From NCBI GenBank assembly GCA_040954595.2, contig CM082578.2, positions 17,615,912-17,679,911 of the forward strand: DNA of 64,000 bases, written 5' to 3'. Position numbers and translations under genes: made by a program. Origin of the DNA: Balanoglossus misakiensis. Lineage: Eukaryota > Animalia > Hemichordata. How positions within the stretch are numbered: the first letter of the stretch is position 1; the number at the start of each line of letters is the position of its first letter. The notes under the pieces are model-generated. The model was not told the origin of the DNA and did no database searches. It was given only the letters and a program-made list of their open reading frames with translations. Shown here one piece after another: positions 1 to 60,588 of this stretch.

Positions 1-1256
1 GTCAACGGCAACACTGGTTGTATCAATAGAGCGATGAGCGCCGACACACAGAAGCAACGGCTACGGGGAAATGGCGAGTCAGTTATGCACCCTCTCCAGA
101 AAATGCCAAGAAGTTATGTTGATTTACCCAGGGAAGACGAAAACGCCATTCTCACTCGATTTGGAACGCCTGCGACGTTCGAAATCGGTAAAGATAAACA
201 GTATTTTGTAGCTATCCTTCGAAACCAAATGCTGTAACATTACCTCGATATAATGCAATTTGGATCAAATGCAAGCCATTCCCGATACCTTGTGTTTAAA
301 CGCGTTACTGAAAAATAACAGAATTGTAGTTGACAAACAGGACAGACCAACACAATTGACTGTTGCTTGATTTTGTTATTGCGTATTTTTCGTCTGCAGA
401 ATCTCCCGGTACGACTGACCCTGCGCAGCGACGCTGCAAAATAGCATTGCTGGGTTATGATGACACGGAAAAACATAAGCACATCATCGAGCAGCTGGGC
501 GTTCTGTGGATGGAGTGTGGCATCGACGTCATACTGCCATCATGGAGTGACAAAGAAATTGCAAAGACGCTGCCTTTGCCTTGGTACACCTCGGTGGCGA
601 GGGAGGTTGACAAAATTGTGCTGATCGTTTCTGAGGGCGTCAAGAGGCGATGGAAAGAACTTGAATCTGCTGGGGGAATGCAACAATGTGATGACGTCCC
701 CGCTACCCAGTACACAGCTGCTCATGTAAATAACATCATACTAAATATCGCTATCGATTTGATGTGCGTGGATGTGCAAAGAGGAGAGCTCCGCCACGAC
801 AAATACGCCCAGGTCCTCCTTCCTTACTCACGAGAGGACCAGACCATTCCGTTCTTGAGTAGAACGTACAGCTTTCCGCGCGACGTCGAGTCGATGTATT
901 TCTACCTCCTTGGTTGCAGGGAAAGTGAGCCTCGCACCAGGAGGACGGTGCCTGGCGTTCTGGACATAATGACTAACAGCAGCTGCGGCGTCGCACTGCG
1001 GAGGGACATCGAAGAGATGCAGAGATACGTCACCGAAAACCCAAACTGGTACCAGGACGAACACGGCAGTAACCGAGCATCTGCCGGTGCCTTGTCTAAC
1101 AGAGATTCAGCCTCGGGCCAAAGTAGCTCGTCATTATCAGATGAAACTCTCCAAGAAACATCGAGTCTGATGTATGGAAAGCAACAACAGCAGCAGCAAC
1201 AAAGAAGGGCCCCAGTTGTAAATGGCAATGCGTCTGGGAGATTTACATATATATAG
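1..1256 (+). CDS. SEFIR-domain gene A, 3' part only (probable IL-17 receptor-like); exons <1-187 and 400-1256
   Basis: Frame-1 exon ends at G|GTAAAG (187) and rejoins in phase 1 at TGCAG|AA (400). Terminal exon has SEFIR motifs KIALLGYDDTEKHKHIIEQL, VDKIVLIVSEG, KYAQVLLPYS, YSFPRDVESMYFYL and ENPNWY, then a Ser-rich/poly-Q tail. Same large terminal-exon layout as receptors B-D. The TM and ectodomain would lie upstream of the window, so receptor status is inferred. Confidence 0.8.
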
Positions 1257-1757
1257 GGATTGAACCACACACCTGTTACGGGATCAATTACTTAACTTGA
1301 TCGACCAATCGATCGACAACATGGGCTGCAGTGTAAATTCAATAAATGGCATCTCCTCACAAATATGAAAACCAGAGAATATCAAACATTCTGAAGTCGA
1401 CATCCGAAGATATCGACATTATTTCAAAAGATAGTGTTTGATATTAATAGGCCAACTCGAGATTCGAGATATCACTCGCCTCAGTTCGTGGCGCTGCTTG
1501 ATTCTGACGTTTCTGACTATTAATGCACGGGTTTCCAAGCAACATCCTTGATTTTTTTATGATGAAAAGTTGCATCGTTTTGTCACTGAGTATTCTGTGT
1601 TCTTCGATTTACGTGATCCTTTACGCAAGCTCAGACAAATAACAGTTTACTGGAATTACAAAGTCTTCTTTTTTTCAATGTCGACTATCTTGCTTTGCCT
1701 CGCCTTACAGTATGTTACATCTGCAATGTCTTGCAAGCATGGGTAATATACGAGTTT

Positions 1758-4700
1758 TCACTGATAATACATATCCGAGCACACAGGGAGTGTCTGTTGG
1801 TTAGTGAAACCAAAACTGATCCTGTTCTGTTGCAAAGCGAAGTCGCTGATAGAGTCGTTTGATGCCAGGCTGGCTCGGTCTTCGGGTTGCTCTACGGGCG
1901 GCACGTACACGAATTCCTGCGTCCAGGAAAAATCTTCTGGTTCAGGGGGACAGTTTGCAAACCGGTTGATGACCTTTGGCAGCGTGTACGGGTGTGCGTC
2001 GGCGGACTCGACGGCAGCACCGCTGGCACGGAGAAACCAGTCGGGGTCATCGGTGACGAGGGTTTTCATCGAGTGCACGGCTTGCCGTAGGGTCTGTCCT
2101 TCTCGGCTTTGTTCAAGCATCGCTGACAAGTCTGGAACCGCGTAGGTCGAGGTGGCCGACATTTCGGGGACGTTGTAAAGAGTGAGATAGAATCTTTCAA
2201 TCTGAGACAGCAACTTGAAGTGACTTCCCATCGACCTGAGCGGTTCTGGAATGTCACTCTCACTAGAATAATCGAAGACGACGGTGATGTATTTTCCTCG
2301 TCTTCCGCAGTCACCCCCGGCGAAATCCTGTGATATTATGTTGAGCGCAGGTACGAAGCAGCCTCTGTCGACAAACTCAAAGCTGTTTTCGTTTTTCTTC
2401 TTTTTTGACAGCCCTTGCTCCCAACACAGCCTGGTCCCTTTGGATGCAACCACTATGATTTTGTCAGATTCAACGAACTGTCGGAAAAGCCACGTGGTGA
2501 TACCTTCAACTGCAATGTCATTCTCATTCCACAGCCCTAGATTGACCTTGCATCCACACTTTGCGGACAGAAACCGGGCGAATGAATCCACGACCTTAGT
2601 GTGCCCGTGACAGTCCTCCTTATATAAAATTAGCAGTCGTGGATTTGCTTCTGTAAAGTATAGGCAGAAGAGAACAAGAGTCACAGTAGAGGAAATCACC
2701 ACCAGACAATATTGAAAGGTGACAGATTTGCCATTGTCGCGCCAAAACTACAAACATATGCATATCAGAACGGTTATCCCAGACATTTACCATTCGGACT
2801 GGGCGAGAGTACATGTAAATGTTCGATGGGGTTAATGTCTAAGGGTTAACTGTCCTAGAACCAAACATGCTATAAAACCACTAATCAAATCAAAGATGAA
2901 CGTACGATCACAACATACATACGCGGAGGAACAAATCAGAATGTTGTTGATTGTATCTTACCGGGTTTGAGAGGTGTACAAGTCAGCCTTACGACCCCGT
3001 TCTCGATAGGCTTCTCGTCGCGGTGAGATGCCTCCGCGCTCGACGACCGGCGTTGTCGTCGGTAGCAGTGCAGCATCACCAAAGCAAGGGCTACTGCAGC
3101 CAGCGAAGCGCAACTGATGGAAACGGCCAAGGTCATAACATCCTTGTCCGTGGCTGACCCCTTGCTGCCTCTCTGCTGGGCAGTCTCAATGCTCACCCCG
3201 GAAGTGAACGATGTTGCCGTCTGAGGCGCGGCTGAGGTTTTCTCCAGGCTTGCTCCTGACAAAGGGGACACATCAAGAAATTCAGCAAAAAAGACTGAGG
3301 CAAAATATATTTAAATTTGAACAATTTTCTCAACAGCAACATGGCAAAAGACAGGACCTGAGAAAAACCTACTTGTTCTTACAACTTACCTACGGCGCAG
3401 CTATTATTTATTGCAGTGTAACCGACGTCACAAAAGCACCGGTATCCGCCATAGCGATCGACAGTTTCGCACCGTCCGTGCTCACCACATTCGTTGATAG
3501 AACATGGGTCCCCTTTTTGAGAAAGAAATTTTGAATCAGAAAAAATACAAATGGCGATGCATGTACACACGCGAGGTAATTTTACTCAGCTACTTTATCC
3601 TATGATTCAAGACCTTCACAACTTCAGAACCAACTTTTTCTTTTAGTTTATCGATATTGTCTATGGTGTGAGTTTGCAATCCACTTGAAAAGCCAAGGTA
3701 TACTGCTGGACGGCCGAAGGGATTTGTCCGGACGCCCGGCTAGACTCTTGTTATATTGGAAGAGGAAAACGACACGATAAGAATATCTCACAGGAAAAAA
3801 ATGAATATTTTGATGGAAACGTGAGTTACAGCATGGATACTTGGAATTTGAACTGTACTTCACATACTGGTAACAGTGAAAGACCTTGAACGGCTTTGTC
3901 TGCAGACGTGTACACATTTGGACGCCGGTTTTGGTTGCACCTGTGGAAAATAGGGATAGACGATGAGAACGAGGCTTGCATGACCTATCTCTGACCTCGA
4001 CGTCACGATCGTCATGCAGCAGACGGGAAATTTCCATTAACTCCTCAAAGATGCCACATGTACGTGTCCCCGTCCTGGGCTAACTCCGGATACAGCAAAA
4101 AATTTACGAAAACAAACACTTTCGATGTGCCATGACGTACAGATGCATTTCCTACGATAAAATAAGTTCATCACTCACCATGACTTTGTAGGGTCGAGGC
4201 CCGACCTGAACACCTTCGAATTTGAATTGGATGATTTTATCGCACCCAGAACTCAGGTGGTACGTCAGATTGACGCCACCATTGCCGGTGATTTCCTTCG
4301 TTTGCCCGTCCACTAGAAATTCCTGCGGTGACGAGGAACAAGATGGCGATCATTTCGAAAACTTGAAGCCACAGATTTTTCCGGCTAATGTTTATGGAAA
4401 TTATTCACTATCGCTCGGAGGTGCGGATCATTAACAGATTGTCTGACTGTGCTGCTCGCCCCAACTTTGAACTTTAGCAGTCACGTACAACGCGTTAACG
4501 ACTCCTGCATCGAGCCCTACATCCATTCAGGTATAGATTCAAGTAAAGTGAAGACGATGCAATCAATGAATTCACTCACCTTGTCAATGCTATTTATAGA
4601 AATGGGTCTGTAACCGTCCATTATGCTTATGACGTAATTTTCGAATTCTAATTCCTCGGGAGACTCCAAAAAATAGCCGTAAACGGTTTGATAATACGTA

Positions 4701-7700
4701 GTGATGTTGATGTGTGTCTCCCATGAAGCCTGTGGTGGTTGATCTGTTTCGTAGGCAGGAAAAAAGAACATATAGGTATCCAATCATCCTTTCATGCTAC
4801 TGACAGTAAATTTTTTATCCCCCTCACTTTTGAGAAAGTTGTGTACTGTGTTCTAAATGTTGTACAACCACAGACAGAAAAAGGTACAACGTAAAACATA
4901 AAGTACGATTAAGTATATTTATATTTTTTTAAATTTTAATCATGCATGTGCAGTCGGTGAAACTCAGATGACAATTATAAAGCATAGACGGAACAAAGTA
5001 ACATATGTGTTTTGTAAATGAAAGAATGAATTAATTAATTAATTAATTAATCAATTAATTAATGGATGAGTAAATAGAGAACATTTACTAAACAAGTGAT
5101 TGAATGAATGAATTACTATAGCAAAATGTGAAATTCAATATTCTCACCTGAATCATTTTCTACGACTGTAGAAAACAACAGAAAGTGACATCAAATAAAC
5201 TTACACAATATGCTATTATATGAAGTGATTACAGCTCGCAACAACACAGAAAATAAATAACTTTATTTTACAAGACTTTATTCTCAAGAAACATCTCTGT
5301 AAGTTCAGTCACGTTATTACATCGCATTCATGGCATCAGTCATTCAAATCGTAATCAATCAATCAATCTACATGTACGTACCTTCATGAACGTTTTGGCG
5401 AATATGTTGTTCACCGTTTGATGGCAGTGTTCGAACTAAAAAGCTATAACGACCCGGAGTAATATCAGGAAAATTGTCAAAAGCCCAAGTTACCTGTGGG
5501 AAGGAAAGTACAACGATCAAAGTCATTGTCACAGAGAGAAGATTAGGGAATTAGTCGCTTTTGCTGTCTTCGCACTCAATTTTCCACAACGTTGCAGGCA
5601 GCCATTATGACCGTGGTTGGATGATTCATGACCGATTCTCAAAACCTCTCAAAAAAGAGGCAGTTACTCGTACACAGGTATCGAGATGATTCAACTTCAT
5701 GAAGCCTTTTAATAGAAGTTGACCTATTACCTGTCCGACTGGTCTTACACCCGGGTCAAATCCAGTGATGTTAAATGTGTAGCATATAGCCAGTCCCTGC
5801 GGGTAGCCACTTCCTCCAAGACCGTCCGTGTTCATAATTGCAAGCTGAATTCCCTTAACTCTTGTAATTTCTGCGTACGTGTAAAAATATGAACATTTAT
5901 GGTCAAGCCACTTGCGATTAAATCCAGTTCGGCGGAACCATTCTCACAAACCAGAGCTCTATTTGCGCTCCACGAAAATACATGTAAGGCACCTGTTGCC
6001 GTAAAGAGGCGTGTGGTTTACGACGATGGGCGGAACACCACAGCAAACCTCACAGTAAGCATCTTTTTCTCAAAATTCCTTCGACTGATGAACTCCGTTT
6101 CTTGTCAACAATCATTATTTGACTGTTGAGAACCGGACGATATCCGATCACGGTACTTACCGGCCGAGTTCAATTCGAAAGTGAGACGCACAGATTGTGG
6201 ACTTGGCGATAGGTGCACTTCCAATTGGCTTGGGTAGACCATGTAGGGTTGCACTGCTCCCGGGAAGACGGAGGGGCAGCCTGGCAGTGATTCTGCTGCT
6301 GGCAGCAAAACGTTGTAAGGCACAGATACGCGCATAGATATGAAACACATAAATTTGTCAATTCATGTATCGATCAGCCTGTGTATATACATGTACACAC
6401 GTGAGCTATAATCCGAAATGGCTGTCCACTGTGGTTACATTGGATCGTACATGTATCATGAATCATGACACAAACTGACATACATACGCACTTCATGCAT
6501 ATTATGTCTTTAACATTACAATCTGTAATTTTCTTCAAGGACAAAATCAGATGCCAATCATACATCTAGGTAGTTCTGCTGCATTCGATTGATTGATTGA
6601 TTGATTGATTTGATTGATTGATTGATTGATACGTGTGTTATCTCTTACCTAAACACTGGTCCGGGTTATACATCATGACGTCATCTCTTATTCCATGTAT
6701 GAAAGTTTGCGATCCATTTTGAATATTAGCACGAAGCTGTTATTTGAAGGAAAAAAGTGTGTGAAAAAAAGTTACATTGTATACCGTTCGCCCTGTCATA
6801 TATATCTGACCAGTATTTCCGAAGATTTTTTTTTATTTTTGACCATTTGACACTTAGCTGTATTTGCATATTATGCAACCGTCACTTTCATTTCAACAAA
6901 GTATACACCTGTGTATGCGCACCACATCTATCGATCGTGCATACTGGGGTGGTCGAGATTTTTGCATTGAAAAAATCCACAGACGATGTTTTCTAGGCGC
7001 CCACTGGCCAGGGAAGCATTGAACAATATTTATAGGCCAAGAACATGGCATCCGGATCACAACTGACCAATGACCTTTCCAGCTGTAAATAACCTTTGAC
7101 AGGAAATTCGTCTGGAATATGTTTCGGTTTAGACCAATTCCTAACTCTGCGAATTTCTCGTTTACATCGAAGCCGAGGGTGTCGGAATTGTCCTAAGGAT
7201 GCGACATACAAAATATATGCGCTTTCGAAGGAAGTTGTAAGGAGTTGGAATGTTCTGTTTGTAAAGACGATGTCCATCGTCCTACACTAACAGTGCGATC
7301 CGCGGCTTCTCTCCGCCGGACGATGGGCACCAAGACAATCAACCATGTTGAACAGTTCCCATCCTAAGTCCTTATATTCGTACACACCACGCCTTACTTG
7401 TTTCATGTGATAAACACGTTGAACCCCCAGTGTCCCTGCCATATTAAAAGATGGAAGCGCGGTCGATCTGAGAATCGCCTGGTACCAGGAAGAGTTCGCA
7501 GGGGCCCAGTAGGTCACAAAAGGGGAAACAAACAAGAGCCTGGAAAACAAGCTAAGAGTGTTTGTTGTTCGTGTGTGTGTGTGAAATCAAAGCTCCTTCA
7601 CTGTTCTTTCTCGCTAGTTTTAAATCTAGATTAGAGAAACTTGACATTTCTTTACAACTCTGCTAATGATAGACACGCAAGCAGATACAGGGGCTTTGGC

Positions 7701-7898
7701 GGCAAAACCGCCACATCAGGAAAACCTCGAGCTACGTTACTGCATCACAACAGAAGACTACAAACTAGTGCAGTCTAATGGGATGTACATGACGACGCCT
7801 GCTTGCCTACTCACCGAAAGTTCTGATTCAGCTTGCCAAACCAGTCCGAGCGACACAACCAGAAAAATGGAAAGAACGACAATGCCGTCGATGTTCAT
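1758..7898 (-). CDS. IL-17 receptor-like gene B: signal peptide, FnIII-like ectodomain, 1 EGF, TM, SEFIR
   Basis: Phase-consistent exons: 7898-7815 (CCACCATG; MNIDGIVVLSIFLVVSLGLVWQAESELS), 6736-6649, ~6298-6161, 5870-5731, 5493-5382, 5165-5148, 4743-4580, 4322-4179, 3940-3868, 3512-3390 (EGF DPCSINECGEHGRC..YRCFCDVGY..C), 3255-2962 (TM LAVSISCASLAAVALALVMLHCY-RRQRR) and 2650-1758 (SEFIR PRLLILYKEDCHGHTKVVDSFARFL, SDKIIVVASKGT, KYITVVFDYS). Confidence 0.88.
5028..5062. repeat. (TTAA)n microsatellite
   Basis: aattaattaattaattaattaatcaattaattaa in an intron of gene B. Confidence 0.85.
6587..6630. repeat. (ATTG)n microsatellite
   Basis: gattgattgattg... tract in an intron of gene B. Confidence 0.9.
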
Positions 7899-8019: not shown

Positions 8020-10944
8020 CAGCTGAGTGTGAAAGTAAGGGGCGTCGATAATTAAAACATGACCACGGCAAACGGAAAGGAGGGATTAAATGAGCACTTT
8101 GCACGAAGTTTTGGCGTACAAGTTTTACCAGTTCCAAGCCTAAGAGTATGCGTGACACAGTCATGAAAATAGCCCTTTAAACTTTTTGTGGTCAATATAT
8201 ATAGGAACGTTATCATTTTTTTTCAATTTTTACATAGTACACTATTTTCCTCCATTTCTTTTCATTGGCTTGGTCTGCAACAAATATGTCTGTCACGACG
8301 CAGTCACGGATATGAATGTTCCTAACGATACGAGATACAGATTTTGCGAGTTTCCGTGTTGTCTTTTCCCAAAGACAAAACCTTTTGTTGCTAGCATTGA
8401 GACGAGAAATAAAAGCGTTTTGTCGACTTAGAAAAAACATGTGATGGGTGGACGGATGATGGATGGACACAGCCTAAGTGTCTCATTATATAACCGTGTC
8501 CTAAAATTACCAAAAATATCACGATATTCTGTGACTGTCGTTTTAATATTCGGCGCCCACGTACCTGAAAGTTGATATAACAGCGTACTATACGAGATTA
8601 ATGATTACAACGAGCTTTTACTCATTATACATGTAACACGATTGAAATGCCAACATTTAAATCAGAGCGTTGCCATTTAACATTTCCTGTGCGTAAAAAT
8701 ATCACCGATCACTTCCTTGCACGCCACGAATGATAAATTTCCCTCACAAAAGCAGCACGCATGAATTATTCTGGCTGAGGTATTTATCAACATCCTCTTG
8801 AAGCAGCTTGGCGGAAGACGTGTACGGTCTGGTTATCTCTTGGAGAGAAAAAACGCAAAGGCAAGCTCGAAACCCACAAGAAAGCATGTACATAATCTGC
8901 TATGGCAACAAACCAGTGTCGATTTCCTTTCGCTTATGTAACAACCATGCATGATACTTATTGACAGTCGGTCGTGTTTATACAGTTCTTGCCAATGCGT
9001 ACTCTACGTCGCACGTCGCCGATGCTCAATTACCCACAATGCACTGGCCCGTCCCCCATAGACATACAAGTGAATGACAACAGGCCGAGTCAGAATAGCT
9101 AGAAATTTATCGTTCTCGGAAAACCGTGATGATTTTGTGTTTCACGCAGCAATGACAATTCTCCGTTGATAACGTTTTCGCGAGGAATTGTGTTCCGCAG
9201 CCCGACTTTTAAAAAATGACGTCAGAATCGCCAGCTACTTTTCTGTGACGCTGTCAGGACGACCGCCCAATCGTCGTTGCCGGGTGCCGCAAAGGTGAGA
9301 GACAACCCGGGTCACCGTTACTCCGTGGCGTGCGCCTAGCACCGAGGACAAAAAGCTGAAGGCAAATTTAGTAACCCTACGGTTCACAGTCACCACGGTT
9401 CAATGCAGTTAGTCCTACATTGGTAAGCCTGGACTAGGTTTGGTTCGACTCTCTCTATATTCCCGGTAAGCTTTCGTGTTTATTCTTGTATCTCTAAGTA
9501 TATTGACTCAAAGTCGAGTGTTTTCGTAATCCTTTGCCAAAGACAAACCAAACCAAACCAATTCATGTCTCTTGTAAGTTGTATGCTCACTTACTTTGTC
9601 CTCTTGCAAGGTTGGTTTCATACCTGTTCCGCCCGCGACATTTCCACACGACCGATAAAAAAACACTTTCACGGACGGTCTCTTACCTGACGACTGGTTA
9701 ATCACAATGCTAGAGCAAACTTGAAGGTATAATCGTCAAACAACAAAAGAGACCACGGAGAACCCGCGTTAAGCACCGTCAAACGGCACTGATTGTTCCA
9801 AACCGTTATGTTTTGACACTGGTCAAATCCCAAAATTACAATTAAAACCTATTCAGTACTGTACATATTGGGGGTGTATGTATTGGCCTCATCAACAACT
9901 TATTTTGCGTTACTTTCTGCGGATTTGTGATTTTCAAAACAAAGGCTTTGACATATATTTGAAGGAGACAGACAACAGCATTGTTGTCAACATAAACAAA
10001 TTCATTCGGCCGACATAAAATGAATAGCCGTCCATTTTGAAGGTCAGGGAGGGGGTCAGGCCCTTTCTTTTATCCTTACATTCAGTTCATATACGTTATC
10101 TTGTCCGTTGATTGTTACTAGTTCCGGGCAAAACTTGACCGAAATGAGATTGCCATGGTTACCGACTATCTGCACAGTCGTTCACCAGCAATCAACCCTC
10201 TGGTATACGAGACCTCTTCTCGTTGAAATGTTCACTTTAGTGACATTCTTTATTTTGAAAGGATCAACCATCAATAGAAACGCCTAGCCACCCACGAGTG
10301 CTTTGTTTAAATACCTACACTCTATTGAGGCGTCGCCTAGGCGCCCGCCCCAGTCAAGACTTGTACGGCGGTGATTGACCAATCATGTGTCGTTATCTGC
10401 CAAGATTCCATGTGTCGGGGTCAGCTAAGGTCACCTTACGGTGTACTTCGCTATTCAGTTGCCCATGTCAGTTGAATGACAACATGTTTCATTGTCTAAT
10501 ACACTTCTATCGTATACCTGATATCGGCAGCGATTTGATCTGTCATTGAGCAAGTTCAAATCATCGATAACGACGTCGGAATTATTCTACCTTCATTTAC
10601 TGGTCATAGTTACCCTGTACTCAGAAAACAGTGAACAAATGACTGCCTATTATTCTATGTTTAAAACTCACGATATATTTTTATTGCGTACACAATGGGT
10701 TGTTTGACCAGGTATTCCCATTGTCGCTGGCACACCTCAGAACTAGCACCAAGTCTCTTTGCCCCCAGTTTCATCGTTCTCAGAAGCTCAGTACGTGCAA
10801 ATGCATACATTTAAGTTTGTGTTTTTGTCTATAAAAACATCAGTTTCCATCACAAATTTATCGGTTCTCCTTTTGACGGCAAATTATTGCACACAACACT
10901 TATCTTTTGTAGGTCGGACGCGACTGTAGTGCAAAGGTACCAAG

Positions 10945-13900: not shown

Positions 13901-14330
13901 TGGTGAGTCGTGTTTTGGGTACATGAGTTCTATGTGTATATTTCAAACTCCTGCCAGGCGGTTATCAAGGCGGTTTCAGAGAGATATTTTCACCTTGATT
14001 AATATTCTCCCAGATTTATTTCACATCTGGAGAAATAGCAAGAATTCAAGTGGTGATAATTTAACCGCTTGACTGGAGACCTCAGATTTTTGTGGCTGCC
14101 TAATGTAGATGTTCATCATCACAATTAGCTTGCTCGGTCGACAAACGTTTCCCGCCCCTTCTTGTTAACCTACAGGCCTACTTTTCCCGAACGACACGCC
14201 GATCAGCGAAGCTACAAAGAAGATACGCCAACCCGGACGGCTTTTGTCAAACCAGTGCGGCGTTCACTTTGCGCGACATTGTCGGCAGCTTGCGTCGTCA
14301 CAACAGAAAGCAACAAAGAAGAAGCAATGA
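10945..14330 (+). CDS. EFCAB12: EF-hand calcium-binding protein, EFCAB12-like
   Basis: Phase-consistent exons 10945-11538, 11748-11843, 12140-12337, 12773-12926, 13138-13457, 13677-13902 and 14176-14330 (TGA). EF-hand pair IADYIHRQRIRLIELFMRVDKNKDWKVNKSQF / VDDLMMTLDTDENEELDYRHF. The N-terminal RKRIIVAPP motif resembles EFCAB12, recalled from memory and not searched. Confidence 0.7.
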
Positions 14331-24847: not shown

Positions 24848-24878
<31 letters not shown>

Positions 24879-42300: not shown

Positions 42301-43418
42301 ACGGAAAATGTGTATTTTTGCAGTGTAGTTGTGATGATGTACGTTTCGGGGCATGAAGAATTGTCTTTCCATCGATTGAGGACAACGCCATGATGAAAGG
42401 CACATCTTGAACCACATGTCACGATCTAAATAACTTTCGTTTCTGTTCACCGTGTTCCGAAACAGTTCTTAATTCTTATTTTGTATGCGACATTTTATTC
42501 ATTTGTCTCTCTTTATTGCTCGTAGGTTTACGCGACCCCATTTTACTTCTCAGCGAAAGTCCAGGAAAACTCACTGGAAATCGCCTGCTAAAACGCCATG
42601 AGTCTGCCATTTGTGGTTTTCGGTCATGTCAGTCCGACATATGATTAATTTGATTATATTTAGCTACCAATAATACTATCTAATACCAATCAATGATCTG
42701 GGCAAACATGATAAACCAATAATTGGTTTGAAGTATAGCCAACGTGATGACCACACGGCAAACATTCCCTGATAGAGAGCAAGTTCTTGTTGAAGGCCAT
42801 TCGGGGCGATTTGAATTTTAAGGAAATGATGAATAATTTATGAAGTCTAAAAAGCTAGTCACGTTCACAACACCACATATGGATTTCAGGATGCTATTTC
42901 CTGGTTCATTATCTGTGACACCATGTTTCGTGGAGTTAATCGAGAGGTATTACCAAACATTAGCGTGTCGCTCCTTTAAACGTCTTCATGGGGGAACAGT
43001 CTAAATATAACTGGGATGTCGTTTTATACGATTTATGAGTTAAGCGACGTCAACAATGCAAGCCATCTGACCGGTGCATTCATCACCTGCCGTCGAATAG
43101 TCTGTCAATAGTGTTCGCAGCGCAGCAACCAGCGCAGTTAATAAATACACGTGTGATCACCTATGCTGCGCAACCTGTTTTTGTTATTGTCACTTTTGTC
43201 AACAAAAATAACGACGAACGCCAACCGGATTTCTTTCCGTGGCTTCTCTCCGATAACAATGAAAGGGCAGCCGGACGTCTTTTTACCTGCTGTGAACACT
43301 TTCCCAACCGTTGACGAATACAAGGTCGCTCCCAGCTCAATTCTTCTCTACAATGTACGACGCACGCCAATGTCAAGACCAGAAATTCACCAAGACCCAC
43401 ATTATTAAGTCCAGCCAT
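36354..43418 (-). CDS. IL-17 receptor-like gene C: signal peptide, FnIII-like ectodomain, 2 EGF, TM, SEFIR, long tail
   Basis: Phase-consistent exons: 43418-43287 (MAGLNNVGLGEFLVLTLACVVHC), 42216-42177, 42050-41886, 41412-41285, 41094-40935, 40810-40757, 40652-40462, 40281-40174, 39923-39833, 39215-39096 (EGF), 38813-38691 (EGF), 38449-38342 (TM IIAAPTGVFGALCLILVAAVCYW), 37866-37807 and 37576-36354 (SEFIR PSVLLLYTKDSDLHMDLVQSFAVFL, ADKIVVIASRGT, KYINVHF). Confidence 0.88.
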
Positions 43419-49400: not shown

Positions 49401-52400
49401 CTGACCTTTCAAAATTGAATGTCAGCATTTTCTACCAAAGACATTTCATGTTAGCAAGAATGATCAAGTCAAACCAACTTTTTCATGCAAATCCAAATAT
49501 TTAGCTAAAGTTATCATTTTATAAGTGCCTCGCCAGCCCTCTCAACAACTTCATTTAAATGCAACAGTAATTTTTATTTGTTTGACTTACGTTTGCATGT
49601 GCCATCTTCAGCATAAGCATTCTTAGAACAGTTGCATGTATACTGGGTGGTGTTAAGCACCGGAATACACACACCCATTTCATCTCCACCACAGGGTTCC
49701 CAGTAACAGCTATCAACTGAGTGGAAACAAAAACACATACAAAAGATCTCATACAAGCGAGTAATAAAATGATTAGACACAGTCCCCAGGGGCCACAGCT
49801 ACAGCAAAGAACCCCCCCCCCCCCCCCCCCCCCCAGTGTGTGGTTTGGTGTTTAGGGGGTTCTGACCAAGATAGCGCCCTCTGTAATCATTTTTGTTACG
49901 GCTTTTGTTTACCATGGGAAATAGTGCTCTTGGAGACCACTTTTTTAGTATGCATGAACTTTGAACAAATCCACATAAAATGGTAAAGGACTCCAAAAGT
50001 TTTAATCAACAGCTTGAATGGTGAAACAACAATTCTCAGAAACAGATTTCACAACTACATGAAAGCGCTATAGCACCTCTTATCCCACTCAAGCCCTATT
50101 CGTTCATGCGGCCCCAAAACTACCACTAAATCAAGTTTTCCAAATCTGCTTTTGATATTAAACTACAGATTGCATGGCCACCCAATATATATTTCCCTCT
50201 TTAAGCACATTTTACCCTCAGTTGTGTTTTGGTGATCTAAAATTGGTATCGACAGACATACCAGCTTGGCACCCATTGTTTTTTTTTAAAGTTTATCAAT
50301 ATCATTTTGTTGCTTAGAAACTATCTGTAAACAAATGAATTATCAGCTGGCAAGTTACAATAGTAATAAGGGTTATGGTAAAAAAGACTTCAGCTATAAA
50401 CCAGCCAGAGTTGCAATTTGCATATATTCCTAAATTCAGGTCAAGGGCCCACAAAATATTACCAAAGGGTATCTCCTGTGTCTAGATATTTATACACATG
50501 ACCTGTTTTCTGAGGATATGACTCATCATTTCGTAAGAACTCCATTGTAAATCTGTGACACAACACAGGTCATAAAACTGACCTCTGGATAGTTTATTTG
50601 GCAGGACCGTCAAGTGGTACAAAGTATCATGTGAGAAGAAAAGCAGCCATGCATGTTATAATATGATCAAACAAAAAGCTAACCTCTGGCGCAATTCCTA
50701 ACTGATAATCTGATAAGTTGATGGATTTTTTCAACACCTATGCTTTGACCCATACAGAAGGATCCTATAAATCTAATGCTTCATCCTTTTTATATAGGTC
50801 TTTTACACTATTTATGACAATTTGTTGTAATTAGGTCAACATATCCAAACCTTTTAACAAGTTTACATTATTTTATACATTTTGCCATATTAACCTATAA
50901 ATACAAAGTACCTTGGTGTATTAGAGAGACTATACTTCCACTTCTGCAATACACTGACTATTCAAACACAGACAAAAACAGTCCTCACACGCTCCTTTCA
51001 AGTTGCTATAACAGCAACTTCTTTTTCAGAATATCAGAGTTTCACATCCACTTATGAGACACTCTCCACAGAGACAAGTCATCAGAAAACACCTGCTTGA
51101 GTTTACATGGGGAGGGTTTTAGACTAAAGCTTTAAAAGAACCACATTTTCATTACTTTTCAACATATTTTAGAAAGCAGTTATTTTCTGATAGTTCAATA
51201 AACAATTTCATAAACAAAATATATATGTCAATTTAGAACAAATTGTCCAATTTGGTGTTTGAGTGCGTGAGTTGAGGTAAACACTTCAAATACACTTCCT
51301 TTATTCATTTATGGGAATACCATATGAGAAATATTGACAAGTCTTCCCATTTTCCATTGACATATGATCTCATGTGATCGCTGTGAACAACCTTTCACCC
51401 CTTCTTCTGTATGTGGTTCAACCCATGCCATTGTAAAAAAACAATAGGACTGATCCAAATGGTGGTGGGAAAGGGTTTTAGATCAACTGACTTTGTGCCA
51501 GTTCCGGTAAATAGAGAACTTTACTAAATCACATAATCACCTCTAAATTGATGAGAATAAAATAGAATAAAACAAGCACAAATTCGTTAGACAATTGTAC
51601 TGCTATTAAAAATGGCAGAAACTTCTCGAAGCAACTAATTATCATGCAGTTGCAGTAATTATGTTGTGCCACTTCCCAATTTACAATTTGCATATATTTG
51701 CTTAGTTTAGCAATGGTGCCTTTTGGAGATTTCAAATGGACATGTATGCATGGTGTAAATGTATAGTCTACAACATTCAACAGGTGGTTTATAGACAGCT
51801 TAGAGGCTTGTGCAGACAGCTCTCCTAGTTTTCAGTTATACTCTGATTAGTTTTAAATTAGGAAAAGGCTTTGATACATATATAGCTATAGCCACTGTGA
51901 CTTAAAATGAATGATATGAACATCTGATGGGAAATTAAACAAATCAAAGTCTTGAGTGACATTTAGATTTAGAGAAAGATTATGAGATGGAGAAGTTCCA
52001 GTTGGAAAACATTTTCAATAAACATCTGCTGGCAGTGCAGCTGGCTATCTTGTCAGTTTATTGACACTTCAAAGATCTTCTCAAATCTCAAGGACAGTTG
52101 ATAAAGATGTAAATTACCTAGACAAGTTGGGTATGTTGTGGGATAAGGTATATAGCCAGGTTCGCAGTCACATTCATAGAAATCCTCATCATGAAATCCA
52201 GTACAGTTGCCATGGTACCCACACGGGTCACTTTCACATGGATCATCTGACAAAAGACAAAAATGGAGAGAAGAAAAGAGAGTTAGTCACGATTGGCATG
52301 GAAAAGTTGTTGCTGATGGGAATTTCACGGGTAAATGTAGGGAAATTCCCTTCTTATGAAAATGAGCAGAAGGGTGCGCCTATGGCCAATGACTGGCTTT

Positions 52401-55400
52401 TAACTTGGCCCATGTGACTTGATTGTAATCCAAAACTCACACAAGTTATGAAGGTGTTACATGATTGGATATTAATCCCAGTAATTATGATAAGCAGGCA
52501 CAGTTAAAAACATGTTGAGATCACAGTTTGGAAATCAGTCAAAGTTCATCAGTTAGCATAGCTGATTCAAGGGGAAGCTGCAAGTTTTTTTTTGTGTGTG
52601 AAACAATGACGACATTATAGTGTGAGACAACCCAGAAATTGCCAGTTCAAAACAACAATTATTTATCATGAGTTTATCAAGAAGTGAAACAGAAATGTTG
52701 ATTTACATAGGAATAAGCTATGACATCCCTTGATCTAATTTTCGATGACTACAAATTTCGCATACCACACTTAGTGTATATACAATGTGTGAGCCATAGT
52801 TTGTCATGGTCCAAGTAACATGCTTTTAGTTCCTCGGTGAGGAAGAAGGAAGATTCTTATTGGAATTGGCCCAAAAATAAAAATAACAATGAATTTAAAT
52901 AAAAACACTGACAAAATCTTAATCATGATTTGTATTTTATTTGCTAATAACAAGATTTTAGTTTAGTCAAGCAAGAAGGCATTTTTGTTAAGTCTTGCAA
53001 AAAAATATCAAGATATACTGAATATAAACTGTAGTCTTATCAACTGCTGTAGAATTATAATTTCAATGTTAATGATTATAAAACTGAGTACATGGAGATT
53101 TATGACAGCAAAGAATATATATAGCATAGCTCTAACAAAGTGATTTAGATGCATTTTTAAGAAGTTAATGATAGCACACAGAATTGTAGGTATATACACA
53201 CATTTAAGCCTTTCACCCCCAGTATCCCTCTGTTGAGGTCTAACATGATCATAGAAAACAAAGGATTTGGGCCAAACCATGGTGGTGAAAGGGTTAAACT
53301 GCCCCTGTCCTTGACATACCACCAGTCAAAACTGCATAGATGGGCCCTGGGCTTTCTTTATGAATGTTATGGTAGATTTTTAAATTAAAAATGACTGGTA
53401 AAATATGTGCATTATGGGTGTGCAAAAATATGGTCCTAGCAACTGCACAATTTTCAGGAAAAGAGCCTATGACAATCCTAAAATTTGCCTGCTTTGTTAT
53501 GTGATTATAAAAATCTCTAAACTCTGAAACAAACTTCAAGTACTTTGGATAAGCCGAGTATCAGTGTAAGATAAATTTGTAAATGCCTGTCAATGCCCTA
53601 ATTCACAGCGTTTGGTTTGAATCGGAATTTAAACAACTATAGGCCTGCATTGCTTTTATATGTTTGTTTACCGATTTGCTATCCTTAAAAGACTTTTTGC
53701 TCTTTGCGTTTGGATTGGATAACCAGAATCAGTTCTTTGTTGTTTTCCTTGAAAGTCAACTTGGTGTCTTTCGGGGGTTGAATCAGATCAATGTTTTCTT
53801 TACCTAGCACTTTGAAGCCACCACTGGTGCTTACAATGCAATAATCACTGGTGTCTGTATCACACGCTGACTCTGGTAATGGTTCCACCTGGATTTAAGA
53901 GAAAAATCATGGAATTTAACAAAAATTGCCAGTCACAAAAGGGCAACAATCACAAATGTAGACAAAAAAAGGTTGCTATGTGGCAAATCCAAAAATACCC
54001 ACCTTCATGCAGTAATTACGTCCTGCAAAGTCATCCTTTTCCAGGAGGTACTCGAAGAAGGTGTACATGTGACCATCAACTGTTTCGTTGTACAGAAGGA
54101 CATCAGGGTCATCCTGCAACATGATACAAATGCGTATTATTATCTACTCGGGCAACAACACAGTACCGTAAAATGTCTAAAGTAATGTCTTTTAGAAACA
54201 CTATACCTCCATAGCTTATCAATCTTCATAAAACACATTATTTTTTGATGTGTCATTTCACTTGTTGATAACACATGAGATGAAGTTTCAAAGTCCATTC
54301 ATAGACTTAACTATATGTCAACTTTATTTGCCATGTAATTGTGATCTGTATCAGTCTAATAATCGTATTAATTTTTCACGGGTTATACGTTAATATCATA
54401 TGCAATAATGCCTGGTATCAGCAATTTTTGCAAGTTATTTGTCCAGTCTTTAAAACGATGTAACTGCAGTGGTTTTTTTAGTGTCATTTTGGACTGCCTT
54501 GTTGAATACTTACTTGTCTCACTGTGACATCAAATACCCAGCCCTTACAACTAGTTTCAGCACTTGCGTCGTATGTATATACCAAAATCTTATATTCATA
54601 TATACCATAACTTTCTGGAGGGATATCAAATTTGGCTATGATTCTGTTGTAGTTTGGAGAATATGGTGTCAGATGCACTGGTTGCCAGTATGCTGCTTCA
54701 TCTGAAAATGTGAAAAGGTTGTCTTACTTACATTGAATGATGTAGTATTAAAAGTATGTGTGTTGCTGAGATTGTATTACAAACTGCCCCAAAATAAAAC
54801 AATTGAAAATGTTGTCCAAATTTGCATAAATCTGACTCGGGTCATCTCTAGGGTCCTGTATGCAGTTGGACATGTATGCAGGTTTTGACCAAAAATACAA
54901 AATGGAAGTTTTGGGCAGAATTTGAAAATGTTGCCTCTTCAACTTGCAAGACAGGGAATGATAGAACTTTCCGATCAAGGAAATTAGAGAGTGATGTTAA
55001 TGCATGATTATCGGGGAGTCAATAGAAGTACAGTACTATTTTGAATGACTATTGCCTACCTCCAGGTTTGACCTGGCATTCTGTGGTCTGGCTAATTCTT
55101 GGATCACCGCAAGCTGAAGAGAAAAAGAAAAATTTTTATGAAAGTATTTTACGGTGTTTATTAATCCCACCCAAACTTTGTCTGTACAGACTAATAAATT
55201 GTTGTAAATAATGTACATTATCTATAATAGTCTCACTTTGCATAAATGCATTCCCTGTCAGCTGAGCATGTTGACAACTGATTACAAAAAGGAGGTGCAT
55301 GCACTTACATGGTACTTTAAAGCGGTGGCTGATCTGAGTAGAGTAAGGATTGACATCGTTGGAGGTTTCATCTGTGATGGGTAACGTTCTGATCACTAAC

Positions 55401-58400
55401 TGATACTCGCAATACGGCGAAAGTGGGCGGAAACAGTCAAAGTAGTAGGTGAGATGTCGATACTGTTGGTGGAAAAGAGAGATTTGATCAGTGGACATTT
55501 TATTCTCAGGAAGATCTGTCTGAGGTGCTTTCAATTGACAGACCTTCAAGTCCAGACATCTATAGGTACACAATTCTTTCTTAATGAAAAATTTGAATCT
55601 GAAAACTCTTCCGTATTAAACTGGTTTAAAGTTCCTTAAAAAAGGGGGAGTCACATTCAATTTAGCCCATGTGGGATTGAATCAGCTATGTCGGTAGGTG
55701 ACAATGAAACTGAATATTTGTCAAAGAAAAATAGAACGCGACCGAAGACTCACATCCACATTTTGGTAATCGTTGCCTCTCAAGTCAAAGGTAACACACT
55801 GAGTTTCTTGAAAGTAATCATACTTGTACTCATTGTGGTTGGTCAGTCCCATGATTGACACATCAAAACCGGTGGGGTTATCTGCAATGTGAAAAACACA
55901 AACACAATCAGAACTTCAGTGGACAATCTTCATCAGTCAATTATCCAAATTGTGGGTCATACACATGACAAGCACTGGCACAAATAGAAAAAACGACACT
56001 ACTTACTTTGGAATGTATCAATGGTCCAAGACATGTTGAGCATGATGTGTGTCTCTGTGACATTATCAGCTGTGATTCCAGTGACGATGTCCCACATGGC
56101 CTCAAAGTTTCTGGGTTTATCAGGAATGTCTGTCCATGGTACTGGGTCTCCTATATCTACACACTCTGTAAATGGTTTCAATGAGGATTATTACAAAAAA
56201 GCAGTACTGCAGTACAGCTTCGCTATCAGAGTTTTTTATTCAGAGTTAATTTCATTTTTAAAGCAGAAAGAATGAACACAGAAATGAAGCCCCACATTAA
56301 TAATTTAAAAGTCATTGTGAAAGACAATTCTACATTGATTTGGTCATGTATGTTTCCGAAACATAAGAAGTAGTGATCACACAGTCTTTTCCAATCAACA
56401 CATGTAAAATAATAATAACAATGCATTTTCTGGTTATCACTTACCAGAACCATTTTTCAGTATGCTGCATTCTATGGTACCCATTGACATCTAAAATTCA
56501 AAATGCATATAAATAAATACATGATAAGCCCTTCATTCTTAATTCATCCAAAATCAAATCGATTCACTTCAAATGATGTTTGTTGCTAGGCAACTGTCCA
56601 AAGCTCAATACTTGAGGGATTATTGGCCTGGTCAGTTACTGTGCCTACTGGAGCTGACTTGTACCACAGGATACAAAGGAATCAATGTCTGCATGATGAC
56701 CTTAGTAGGAGTATGAGATTAAATGATCTAACTACATTGCATCACATTCTAACAACCATAAAGTATGTGCAGTACTCGAACCAGTTTCAAATTAACTTGC
56801 TTTTTTTGACAAAAACATTCTTACAAACAAGACCGTAAAATTTTTGCAATGCAAAATAATCAACCTGGATGTCACGGTCTTCATCCCACTAGCATGTTCT
56901 CCCCCCCCCCAAAAAAAGTAATTTATCTCTCACCATTTGTGTCATTCTTACAAATGGGACATGCTCTGTTGGATTACAATGTTAAGAGAGGCTTGTTAAG
57001 TGGATCAGTTCAGTACTTTGAAAAATTTTTCCCAGGTATGTCAAGGTATGTCTGTACGCTATAGTGACAGACTCAGTAAAGTTCACAATGGGGCAAATTA
57101 TTGCAATACGTACACCCTGTAAAAGTGTTCTACAAATGTCCCAGCCTTTTCAGGCCCAGGATCAATGATTTTACCCACAAATTAATTCATAAACTTTATC
57201 TTTTTTTAGAACTGACTGTCCCGAAATCACTCTTCTATCATAACAGAAAAAGTCCAAAGCCCGTGTATTATATGCAGTTGACCTTTCATTTCAGTATACA
57301 ACTGGGTTAATGTATTCTTGAGGGAAAATAGCGGTTTCGGAGAAAAACTTGAATAGAGCAGGCTGAGTGCCATTTAATGTAACAGTGGTGTCACTGTCCG
57401 AGTCATTAAAAACGCTGTATAGCATACCACAAGAAGTTGTCAAACAGAAGGAGTTGCCATGGAGAGGTTACGCCCCGTGGAACATTGTGCTATTGTGACA
57501 ATGGCGCAGCACTAGAAACAGCCAGTAAATAATATGACATTTAGACGGACTTCAAACGGTCTGATTCCTGAAGTGAAAGTTTCAAACTGTCACCACGACC
57601 AAAAGAAACCACAGTGCACACTCAGGCTACAACGGCCGGGAGACAATATCAAACAAAAAATCGTGACAATTTGCACACGCTACCAATACTTCTCCATAAA
57701 TAAAGTCCACATACATTGTGATTTATAATCTCAGATTTACTGGAACCAAGCCAAAGTGCATGTGCATCTAGTCACGCAACACTCATCCTATCAAGTTGAC
57801 CAAAAAAGTGGAAGTTAACACTGGTCTTTTCTGTGGTTCACCAGCTTCCATTCAGGAATATAGAAACTACCGAGCTTTCAATTAGTCTGAGCCGTGGCAA
57901 TCCAGAAGCAATATGGCACTGATCTCTACTAATCACTGTTGGACAACTGTAATACATGTAGACAGAATATGTCAACCTAGGGTTTTATTTGTTTACTCAG
58001 TGGAAAGGTGCAGACGTCCTAATTCATAAAGGAGCCTTTATATAACTGTCATTTGTGTCCTGAAATGACCTGAGAGTCAATTTTGTTGAATTCAATCCTG
58101 GTCAGCAAGCATTTGGTTAAAAAACACATGTATGTCAAACAGCTCTCAGACGGTAATTAATGATTGCCCAGTGGCTAGACAACTTGTATGTGTACATGAC
58201 ACTTCATCTGGGTCACTACTGGCATAACAGTAACAACTATTACACTGATAAGAAATTTATCTCTGTGGTCTAAATAATTACCTAGTTATGTTTGGACTTG
58301 GGTGTGTGAATATTTTGCATAGGGTACATATTTCAGTGTAGCTGCAATAATTGTACTGTAGGCCTTGGTGCGGTGAGGTGGGTTTGGTGGCTGGGTCATG

Positions 58401-60588
58401 CTGCTTGCACGATACCCACGACCCAGTCATCCCAAACCAGCCCACCAAGGCTACAATTATTGCAGCTAATTTCAGTGAAAAGTTGCAGCAGATATTTGTA
58501 ACTTGCGTAAGAGTTTGAACTGATATTCAAGGGAAACATCACATCTGGAATTCAAGAGGCAGTGTCTAATTACATATAAAATGAGTAAAGAAGTAAACAT
58601 GCACTTAGTAGGAGAATAAGCAGAACTTGCATTTGAGTGGATCTGTATATGTATATGTTTCAATTAGTGTCGACCCCATGAAAAACAGAACCCTGTGAAG
58701 CAAACACTATGGCTACACTGACTTGTACATGCATTCGCCCAGCTTGTTCAAACAAAACGTTAAAAAAGAAGGAAATAAATTATCAATGCCGACAAAGGGT
58801 ACTGACTTGGATATGCACAAACAGAAGCTATGGATATCTATATAAAATGATGGTGAGCTGAATTGTCAACACTTACGTATTTTCTTCTTTTGAATACACA
58901 TTTTTGTATATCTTGTGAATATATCTCGTGAATCCCAACACAATGACACCATATAGACAGTCAACCACACTTTTCAAAGTCACTTGATTTATTTCCAGAC
59001 AATTTGCAATTACCCGGTAATAGCAAACACACACATAATTTAACTGATAAAGGCATTAATGTTAAAAACAGCCTACTTTCCTTGTTCCTGGTATTTTGTC
59101 TTTTGAAATTCTCCAAGGACAGGCTCATAAAAGGTTATATCAGGTGATCACAATTTTATTTCTTGGCATGTAAATCACAGTAGTTACAAAACGTAAACAG
59201 CCATTGCTCAGGTAAATGCAACCAGCCCTGGCTTTAACTTGTCGTTGAGCTGAAAATAGTCTGATATATTGCATCAAATTCTTCAAGGGTTGAAGTTCAA
59301 ATTCATTTGATAAGATTTCAGAGAATTCTTGCAGTGGTTTTCCCCCTATTGCTGAGTGGTTATTTACATAGTTACATGCATTTGATTTTAACTCAACATT
59401 TGATGTTTACTCAAGACTACCCCAGTGCTTTTACTTAGAGAAATCACTCCCCCTCCCACACAAATTTAATCTTTCTTCTTGATGTTCAACGCAAAATGAA
59501 ACAACTTGTGCGGACTGAATTTATACAGTTGTAGATTGATTTAAAACAACAATCATGGCAGATGATAACTGGTTAACTTTAAATACAAGGAAGTGAGGAA
59601 GAAATAGTGTATACAATTGAAATTTTCAGTTTTTTTCATAATTCAATTGGAAAATCAATTACGTTACATGTTTTCAGGAGATAACACCTTAGAATTCTAA
59701 TTATGTCCTATATGAGTAAGCCCCATACAAATTTTATCAGCTGTTGTGTTTGTAGAAGACTTTTATCGATTGGACAGTTTCTGGAATTACACTAATTTCC
59801 ATGAACTGCACACACCTCTATTCATTTACTCAACCTATTTTCAACTTATCAGTAAACAAATCTCCATAAAATAAAGTACATTTAATGCTATAATCTGTAT
59901 TCTTGGCCAAAAATGTGACAATTGGAGAGAGACATTTATGCTTGACATAACTTAACAACAGAGCTTGCAATTTGGAGGCAAACTGTCGTTCATCTTTGTA
60001 CTCATGCATATTCATTAATTGTCATCCACAGTTCATTTTTTCAAATGTGTGGCTATTTCCTCATAGCTGACAGGCAAGACGTTACTATGGACGGATTCTC
60101 AATATTTGATTCTAGATTCATTTTCCATACATGTAGATCACCATGACCCCCTTCAGGAGCAGACCAAAAAAGTATAAATGACTATATCTTGTTCATGGTG
60201 ACTTAATTATACTAGTCAAGAGGTTTAAAAAAATGATAGAAATGCAGATTTGATGAGAAAGGCCATGGTTCAGGTCTCCTGACTCACTCCGGGCACCACT
60301 GACAACCACCTGTATGAGCAATGTGACACTAGATCTCAGTGTCATGTGACATGTTGGTGCCAAACCTGCAGCGTAGTCAAGTTATTGCCTGTAAATCCCC
60401 AAATGATCTGTAAACTGGCCACTCTTTGATTACACGATAGGTGTCGAAAGAAGCTATCTTACCTCCTGAGAACAATCAGGCTGGTCAATAATGCACGGTT
60501 CGGTCCAATCCCATGCTTCGTTACACAGTACTATGACTAGGAAGGAACCCGCAGTCAGAAATGTTACCAATCCAAGTTTAAACCCCAT
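46402..60588 (-). CDS. IL-17 receptor-like gene D, tandem paralog of C: signal peptide, FnIII-like ectodomain, 4 EGF, TM, SEFIR, long tail
   Basis: Exons: 60588-60463 (MGFKLGLVTFLTAGSFLVIVLC), 56490-56445, 56165-56007, 55881-55754, 55462-55309, 55113-55060, 54701-54514, 54113-54003, 53888-53804, EGF exons 52246-52118, 49716-49591, 49306-49193 and 48762-48646, TM 48263-48162 (VLIVVAVLGSLIAAALIVILAFCYW), 47895-47845 and SEFIR 47642-46402. Exon order and phases match gene C. Confidence 0.88.
47763..47820. repeat. (CAAA)/(CAAG) compound microsatellite
   Basis: caagcaaacaaacaaacaaacaagcaagc... in the last intron of gene D. Confidence 0.9.
49812..49835. repeat. poly-C run (also at ~62960-62978)
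   Basis: Homopolymer of about 24 C. Confidence 0.9.
52340..52350. promoter_or_regulatory. Near-palindromic kappaB-like site GGGAAATTCCC, intronic in gene D
   Basis: The sequence is present as written, and a second GGGAATTTCA lies ~20 bp away at 52318. Confidence 0.3.
53204..53297. mobile_element. Mini TTAA-flanked inverted-repeat element (piggyBac-type MITE-like)
   Basis: TTAA-GCCTTTCACCCCC ... GGTGGTGAAAGGG-TTAA. A related degenerate copy lies at ~51391-51475 (CCTTTCACCCC ... GGTGGTGGGAAAGGG). Confidence 0.55.
58339..58468. repeat. ~130-bp nested inverted repeat (foldback/MITE-like hairpin) in intron 1 of gene D
   Basis: TAGCTGCAATAATTGTA/TACAATTATTGCAGCTA is a perfect 17-bp outer stem. 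Inner arms are CCTTGGTG/CACCAAGG, GGTTTGG/CCAAACC and CTGGGTC/GACCCAG. Confidence 0.8.

Follow-up and report, generated by a model that had tools for sequence, protein, structure and literature searches.

To our knowledge, the described adaptors of interleukin-17 (IL-17) receptors all signal via a Death domain or via TRAF/U-box elements. Four types of CIKS (Act1) adaptor have been distinguished, of which the Death-middle-SEFIR arrangement is ancestral (PMC11087794; literature is cited here by PubMed Central accession). In amphioxus, NF-kB/AP-1 output rose by a factor of tens to hundreds when a SEFIR adaptor carried a fused death fold (PMC11087794). In Caenorhabditis elegans, ACTL-1 recruits IRAK and the paracaspase MALT-1 and thereby connects them to IL-17 receptors (PMC7190641). 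In the human receptors, a SEFIR tetramer seeds a double-stranded ACT1 assembly in which BB faces meet EE faces; ACT1 docks on IL-17RA through EE and CD faces, and its free C-terminal tether is required for recruitment (PMC12828022). Saccoglossus has a separate CIKS and four IL-17 receptors (PMC11087794). Here we describe two predicted genes (X and Y) that encode soluble proteins with a SEFIR domain followed by two CARDs and lie among IL-17 receptor (IL-17R)-like genes in 64,000 nucleotides of the acorn worm Balanoglossus misakiensis (contig CM082578.2, positions 17,615,912 to 17,679,911; the whole stretch is referred to as the window). They belong to a real, conserved, and apparently undescribed SEFIR-CARD-CARD family that is nested among IL-17-type receptors in acorn worms.

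The window is animal DNA with introns. Six-frame translation and Pfam scans located the SEFIR exons, and gene models were hand-built from splice sites and paralogue comparisons. Seven genes were predicted (Table 1): four receptors (A, which is partial, B, C, and D), the two SEFIR-CARD-CARD genes X and Y, and a CARD-CARD gene (Z). All built models are open from start to stop, except for the partial A, and all introns are GT-AG, the sole exception being one GC-AG intron in C; the parts of the models placed with least certainty are the first exons of X, Y, and Z, which should be regarded as tentative. The initial annotation had recognized six SEFIR-type domains, and these were recovered: five of the six exons (A, B, C, D, and X) pass the Pfam cut-off for SEFIR (PF08357; 23 bits), and that of Y, which falls below it, is supported by profile alignment (178 columns of the receptor profile aligned to the Y-family profile; hhalign probability, 96.8; E = 3e-10). 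Each of the six is contained in a single exon preceded by a phase-1 intron. The annotation had also described the receptors as interleaved with adaptors; the order along the window is instead A, B, an EF-hand gene, X, Y, Z, C, and D, i.e., the receptors are nested around the adaptors, and the EF-hand gene separates B from X.

Table 1. Predicted genes, SEFIR exons, and domain-coding segments of the window
Feature	Position	Strand	Model size	Details
Gene A, 3' end of IL-17R-like receptor	1-1256	+	347 aa (partial)	Exons 1-187 and 400-1256; SEFIR and helix F in last exon
A SEFIR exon	400-1256	+
Gene B, IL-17R-like receptor	1758-7898	-	756 aa	12 exons; open model
B SEFIR exon	1758-2650	-
EF-hand gene	~10930-13902	+		Multi-exon; between B and X
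Gene X, soluble SEFIR-CARD-CARD	16521-18650	-	432 aa	Exons 18650-18629 (tentative), 18134-18012, 17822-17157, and 17008-16521
X SEFIR exon	17157-17822	-		SEFIR, helix F, and first helix of CARD1
X CARD exon	16521-17008	-		Remainder of CARD1 and whole CARD2
Gene Y, soluble, degenerate SEFIR-CARD-CARD-linker-fn3-tail	23076-26630	+	734 aa	7 exons; open model
Y SEFIR exon	23559-24170	+
Y CARDs	24287-24802	+
Y fn3	25429-25749	+
Gene Z, soluble CARD-CARD-TRADD-N-like-fn3	29064-33027	-	741 aa	Open model
Z CARDs	31739-32218	-
Z TRADD-N-like	30755-31306	-
Z fn3	29942-30241	-
Gene C, IL-17R-like receptor	36354-43418	-	900 aa	14 exons; 2 EGF; long tail; one GC-AG intron
C SEFIR exon	36354-37576	-
Gene D, IL-17R-like receptor	46402-60588	-	976 aa	16 exons; 4 EGF; long tail; open model
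D SEFIR exon	46402-47642	-

The description of X and Y as soluble proteins with a SEFIR domain and tandem CARDs, and of Z as a soluble CARD protein, was borne out. None of the three has a transmembrane (TM) segment (KD19 maximum, 1.09-1.28), and Pfam detects the SEFIR domain of X (E = 1.4e-6 to 1.8e-6) and CARDs in X (two stretches; 6.9e-17), Y (5e-14), and Z (4e-18). The second repeat (CARD2) is a six-helix CARD that passes Pfam in all three. The first (CARD1) is divergent in each pair and has no separate match of its own in the fold search; it appears as a second Pfam stretch in X and Z, aligns with an hhalign probability of 90, and is helical at a predicted local distance difference test (pLDDT) score of 78-90 in a structural model of the X orthologue. 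Moreover, a search with the CARD2 profile recovers CARD1 below E = 0.05 in 9 of the 10 members of the family, the best reversed control scoring 0.48. Both repeats are thus CARDs in X, Y, and Z. The possibility that X or Y is a receptor with missed ectodomain exons was rejected, since no orthologue has a TM segment and tblastn with the receptor models (D whole; B and C only partly translated) detected no receptor-like exon in the 18.2-23 kb interval. A 146-codon open frame (26465-26902, plus strand) overlaps and outruns the last exon of Y in another frame and has no Pfam match; it was rejected as the end of Y because the orthologue from Ptychodera flava supports the other frame.

A profile built from the SEFIR exons of X and Y alone was searched against 1.84 billion cluster representatives and gave nine matches at E<=0.001, six of them at E<=1e-10. 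All six strong relatives pass Pfam CARD, although the query held no CARD; three pass SEFIR, and two have a passing fn3. These uncharacterized proteins represent three families of Enteropneusta: three are from P. flava, two are from Saccoglossus kowalevskii, and the sixth, a cluster of two genes, is from Glandiceps talaboti. In all of them, as in X and Y, the SEFIR domain is N-terminal and two CARDs follow. The remaining three matches comprise two ordinary SEFIR proteins and a tape-measure-like protein (P0007), which was dropped as spurious and kept out of the trees. The tunicate model P0008 (Clavelina lepadiformis, CAK8698392.1) has SEFIR domains on both sides of a TM segment and probably represents two fused genes. 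Phylogenetic trees, from which the isoforms P0010, P0014, and P0015 were omitted, paired X with P0003 (support, 95/92) and Y with P0002 (100/99), both from P. flava, and the independent annotations of this species match our models nearly end to end (X residues 13-421 at 48% identity; Y residues 22-731 at 45%, with 63-65% in the CARDs and 65% in fn3). Over the adaptors as a whole, identity to the P. flava orthologues is 53-65% in the CARDs, 44-49% in the SEFIR domain, and 30-32% in the linker and tail of Y. In an unrooted SEFIR tree that included no CIKS, nine adaptors split from nine other SEFIRs with 100/100 support.

The SEFIR-CARD-CARD family was thus predicted from sequence in acorn worms; its confinement there lies beyond the reach of a two-sequence profile, which would miss more divergent SEFIR-CARD proteins of other phyla. 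When the X SEFIR exon was used in a word-based search for homologues, none emerged from 82 candidates, and such blanks are weak given that the profile search finds relatives. No SEFIR chain was recovered when PDB sequences were searched with the adaptor profiles, and an Atlas query for SEFIR+CARD+CARD, covering clusters of at least 50 members, returned Death+SEFIR and Death+TIR clusters (best score, 0.83) and no CARD+SEFIR cluster.

The linkage between adaptors and receptors appears to extend to a second species. Of 7,995 candidates in the receptor profile search, two were retained, both from P. flava, and they are the orthologues of B and A. Consecutive RefSeq numbers usually denote neighboring genes. 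The P. flava adaptor accessions are XP_070559425 (Y) and those ending in 427 (X) and 429 (a third paralogue), and the receptors follow at 430 (A) and 431-434 (B); every one of these records lists the same longest contig (47,311,355 bp). Because the accessions of the X, Y, A, and B orthologues are nearly consecutive, the cluster is probably conserved in P. flava, as read from accession order rather than from DNA. The two Saccoglossus adaptor genes (LOC144360022-026) lie on the same 158-kb contig, four locus numbers apart; the Glandiceps genes are LOC144453408/423. The initial proposal of a conserved locus of receptors and CARD adaptors therefore holds for the relatives in three families and the clustered P. 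flava accessions; as for co-function, the linkage may record only origin.

The SEFIR domain of X and Y resembles that of a receptor. Alignment of the X-family profile with that of the receptors spans 182 columns (probability, 98.4) and continues through the helix after the SEFIR core (helix F); the Y group behaves in the same way (96.8). The structural model of the X orthologue (pLDDT, 70.4) contains a SEFIR domain, one long helix that runs from helix F into CARD1, and then a second CARD; its best match is IL-17RA (4nux, chain residues 376-583; Z, 15.4; 164 aligned; root mean square deviation, 3.0), and it also matches the Apaf-1 CARD (Z, 14.1; 89 aligned; root mean square deviation, 1.9). With Foldseek, a 177-residue chain of 9ot1, judged by its length to be ACT1, matched at E = 1.2e-2, below IL-17RA at 2.1e-4. 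Helix F has been described in IL-17RA, RC, RD, and RE, and ACT1 ends in a beta-strand tether (PMC12828022); the SEFIR domain of the sea urchin receptor SpIL17R2 is also encoded in the last exon (PMC5457136). On the basis of the IL-17RA-like SEFIR with helix F and the single phase-1 exon, X and Y probably arose by exon shuffling that placed the cytoplasmic exon of a receptor in front of a CARD-CARD exon. X, Y, and Z have 15 introns in total, every one of them in phase 1; phase 1 is common in these genes, which weighs against this argument.

The invertebrate CIKS/Act1 proteins (amphioxus CIKS1, C. elegans ACTL-1, and Saccoglossus XP_006818304) share with X and Y a soluble form, a SEFIR domain joined to a death fold, and a presumed role as IL-17R adaptors. 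In contrast to these, X and Y have the SEFIR domain first, two CARDs instead of one Death domain, a receptor-type helix F, and no long U-box/TRAF middle region; they are also multicopy and apparently linked to receptors. The CIKS order, with SEFIR at the C terminus behind a Death domain or a long middle region, was found in neither protein. Pfam detected no U-box in X, Y, or their relatives, and matches to the TRAF6 pattern occur in X and Y only inside folded domains and not at all in P0001-P0006. Because the domain order is reversed and the SEFIR is like that of IL-17RA, X and Y are, as far as sequence can tell, not Act1/CIKS, and they probably work like CIKS despite their different domain order. 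RIG-I/MDA5 and NOD2 carry tandem CARDs and act when clustered. They resemble X and Y in having two CARDs in a row, yet they are not among the listed sequence or fold matches.

The human IL-17RA/IL-17RB/ACT1 signalosome (PDB 9ot1) has in common with A-D and with the X orthologue model a SEFIR domain with helix F; human ACT1, however, ends in its tether and has its TRAF6/U-box output at the N terminus (PMC12828022), whereas X and Y run on into CARDs. The four receptors in the window are further set apart from the human signalosome in that each combines helix F with the tryptophan that co-receptors have in the BB loop, and in their EGF repeats. A placozoan MyD88-like TIR-CARD protein is similar to X and Y in that a TIR-superfamily domain is joined to a CARD in a soluble adaptor, but it has TIR instead of SEFIR, comes from another phylum, and is described with neither a tandem CARD nor a receptor cluster; the placozoan SEFIR adaptor has a Death domain (PMC6321704).

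On balance, we lean toward X and Y being adaptors that dock on activated IL-17-type receptors and cluster their CARD pairs to switch on a CARD partner. Under this model, the single cytoplasmic SEFIR exon of a receptor would have been duplicated in place and joined via phase-1 introns to a CARD-CARD exon, and further duplications would have yielded X, Y, and the SEFIR-less Z. An IL-17-family ligand would gather receptors into a SEFIR platform, like that of the human IL-17RA/RB/ACT1 assembly, on which X and Y would dock in a short row or as a cap, using their conserved elements (beta-C/alpha-C, beta-D, and alpha-E); the clustered CARDs could then act as a nucleus for an initiator caspase or for some other protein with a CARD. 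Through CARD contacts, Z may also take part and add a TRAF-type link by its TRADD-N-like domain. The X/Y route would parallel that of the ordinary Death-SEFIR CIKS, a protein also encoded in Saccoglossus. Across eight adaptors (P0011 was omitted from this count), alpha-E and beta-C are best kept (51% identity each), followed by beta-D (45%) and alpha-C (43%), and the BB loop and alpha-B are among the least kept (15%). This pattern, together with the loss of two tryptophans (see below), fits receptor docking with limited onward growth. The best CARD matches are cIAP1, Apaf-1, RAIDD, CED-3, and NOD1, which does not name a partner. A bolder version is doubtful in our estimation, namely, that X and Y form a second class of IL-17R adaptor, built from the receptor's own cytoplasmic exon and kept beside the receptors, that would couple a cytokine receptor directly to a CARD-caspase platform. 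IL-17 would then trigger a switch resembling an inflammasome or apoptosome, and Z would bridge CARD to TRAF.

The poor conservation of the BB/alpha-B face, which would receive the next protomer, and the loss of both receptor tryptophans from it would also suit X and Y as brakes, whose receptor-derived SEFIRs cap the platform and block CIKS polymerization while the CARDs sequester partners like CARD-only inhibitors. MyD88 signaling is inhibited by IL-17RD and by SEFIR proteins that lack a Death domain (PMC11087794), and ICEBERG is a weak and nonspecific entry among the CARD matches. We nevertheless regard a braking role as unlikely: the ACT1 BB face itself has no need of Trp, relying on Asp, Gly, and Ile (D445, G449, I450, and D451; PMC12828022), the BB region is acidic in the adaptors too, and a decoy would need less than two conserved CARDs. 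A similarly low probability applies to the idea that linkage is a mere record of local duplication and that X, Y, and Z act elsewhere, e.g., in bridging TIR proteins (TLR and MyD88) or cytosolic CARD sensors. The receptor-like exon and fold of X and Y, the unrelated EF-hand gene inside the cluster, and the presence of the SEFIR-less Z are as this idea would have them; SEFIR and TIR proteins of amphioxus and zebrafish cross-bind (PMC11087794), and marine invertebrates commonly shuffle CARD with fn3 and death folds with TRADD-N (PMC2858798 and PMC8195603). Linkage is, however, apparently retained between two species despite an overall orthologue identity of no more than 45-52%, and SEFIR as a rule binds SEFIR. 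Both accounts keep some probability because local origin by itself explains the linkage. That the SEFIR-CARD fusions are gene-modeling artifacts or pseudogenes might be suspected of hand-built models, but it is very improbable given the open models with canonical splice sites, the clear domain-wise conservation, and the presence of the same fusion and junction in independent NCBI proteins of three species.

Several results weigh against X and Y acting as receptor adaptors or against the reach of that proposal. The two tryptophans of the BB loop and alpha-B are present in all seven receptors and in none of the eight adaptors, and X and Y cannot have the free C-terminal tether of ACT1. Their SEFIR domain diverges faster (44-49% identity to P. 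flava) than that of receptors B (78%) and A (56%), and that of Y scores only E = 0.066-0.095 in Pfam. No caspase or other CARD effector was found within the window. Of the three SEFIR/CARD adaptors initially counted, only two stand, because Z has no SEFIR domain in the Pfam scans of the window. A receptor-exon origin alone could explain the clustering without shared function, and the nearest Atlas cluster to the X SEFIR is mollusc CIKS-like (score, 0.84), a lead only, toward a possible CIKS origin of this domain. Apart from the accession-based nature of the P. flava linkage, the receptor searches found proteins only from that species (2 of 7,995 candidates; in the other search, 1 of 416, the query itself) and none in Glandiceps or Saccoglossus, and the same searches yielded no orthologue of C, D, or Z. 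Finally, death-fold output from SEFIR adaptors is already known in invertebrates (PMC11087794 and PMC7190641). Of the undescribed system first suggested, the architecture and the cluster had no counterpart in the literature searched, and the general principle was already known.

No SEFIR-CARD fusion was found in the literature searched, which mostly leaves out subscription papers; surveys of Act1 evolution, of bivalve CIKSL, and of TIR-domain architectures, as well as unseen supplements (e.g., the architecture tables of PMC8195603), could list one. In the accessible text and both supplements of PMC11087794, the term CARD does not occur, and none of the four CIKS types has a CARD. The accessible portions of PMC11797021, PMC12909245, and PMC10210618 contain nothing on such a fusion, and the last of these, a Saccoglossus immune-challenge paper, mentions neither SEFIR nor IL-17 in its text or one supplement.

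Judged by SEFIR domain and type I topology, A-D are predicted members of the IL-17 receptor family. In the PDB they match IL-17RA and IL-17RB best (E = 8e-40 to 2e-12), and the IL-17RA match extends through helix F. The window yielded no gene for an IL-17-family ligand. The full type I architecture first proposed for B-D was confirmed by a signal-like stretch and a TM segment in each model: in B and D, a hydrophobic stretch at the N terminus is accompanied by a single TM segment, and C has these plus a hydrophobic match inside the SEFIR core. A has no TM exon inside the window, and its receptor status rests on the P. flava orthologue P0013 (48.5% identity over 303 aa; tree support, 100/100), a type I protein with Ig_ILCR1 (passing at 9.6e-9), EGF, TM, and SEFIR segments. 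Pfam E values for SEFIR are 7.2e-12 (A), 2.9e-29 (B), 2.3e-21 (C), and 2e-18 (D). B consists of a signal stretch, an FN3-like ectodomain, one EGF, a TM segment, SEFIR with helix F, and a short tail, and it is 52% identical overall to its P. flava orthologue (P0012), with 78% in the SEFIR; the B tail has two PxE motifs of the TRAF6 type, and the orthologue tail has no match. EGF exons number one in B, two in C, and four in D. As regards the double-FN3 ectodomain of the IL-17 receptor family, Ig_ILCR1 is weak in single exons (E = 0.036 in B, 0.0015 in C, and 0.078 in D). Degenerate FN3 domains are common in the family, and EGF has been noted in some IL-17R ectodomains (PMC11087794). C is a paralogue of D (43%), and the two share an ectodomain exon that is 96% identical in DNA (41879-42047 and 56000-56168), possibly by recent gene conversion or strong constraint; three other listed shared stretches are 71-86% identical. 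The observed/expected CpG ratio is 0.47 in the D coding sequence versus 0.87-1.12 in A, B, C, X, Y, and Z. CpG depletion, the usual trace of gene-body methylation, covers gene D and the DNA beyond (46402-64000), and D may therefore be a constitutively expressed receptor.

Z has a match to TRADD-like_N (PF20694; E = 8.4e-5) that, at 22.8 bits, lies just below the cut-off of 23.7, so that the Pfam check proposed for this domain fell marginally short; its fn3 was found at 6.4e-5 and is 46% identical to that of Y. A single-sequence model of the TRADD-N-like exon was unusable (pLDDT, 40.6), and Z sits on a long branch without a resolved position in the CARD tree. DEDD2-clade TRADD-N proteins of marine invertebrates (PMC8195603) likewise combine a death fold with a TRADD-N-like domain and have the Gly-Cys form of the conserved turn, which Z has in its sequence; Z differs in its CARD pair instead of a DED, its fn3 domain, and its sub-cut-off Pfam score. 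For hemichordates, 22 copies are reported (PMC8195603), and CARD-fn3 occurs in amphioxus (PMC2858798). Y and Z are convergent genes, and between their fn3 exons there is an inverted repeat of 75 nt at 76% (25609-25683 and 30002-30076), which is a sign of inverted duplication. Downstream of Z, an open stretch with a good acceptor and an Asp-Ser-Gly motif (28277-28441, minus strand) may be an alternative last exon. Asp-Ser/Thr-Gly motifs are repeated in Y (24968-25306), in Z (32383-33027 and 30755-31306), and in the tails of C and D, and two of those in Y are retained in the P. flava orthologue. We take these motifs to resemble beta-TrCP phosphodegrons, which suggests that the proteins may undergo regulated turnover.

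Immune domain shuffling is common in marine invertebrates, and X and Y would accordingly be read as a new architecture rather than a new pathway. As a conserved class in the sister group of the echinoderms, SEFIR-CARD-CARD proteins would add a third output to IL-17R signaling and would show an adaptor arising from its own receptor. This bears on IL-17R signaling in ambulacrarians, as sea urchins are without Act1 (PMC5457136). Because P. flava and S. kowalevskii are laboratory acorn worms, the genes of the family that are named there can be cloned and used to test for IL-17-driven caspase activation.

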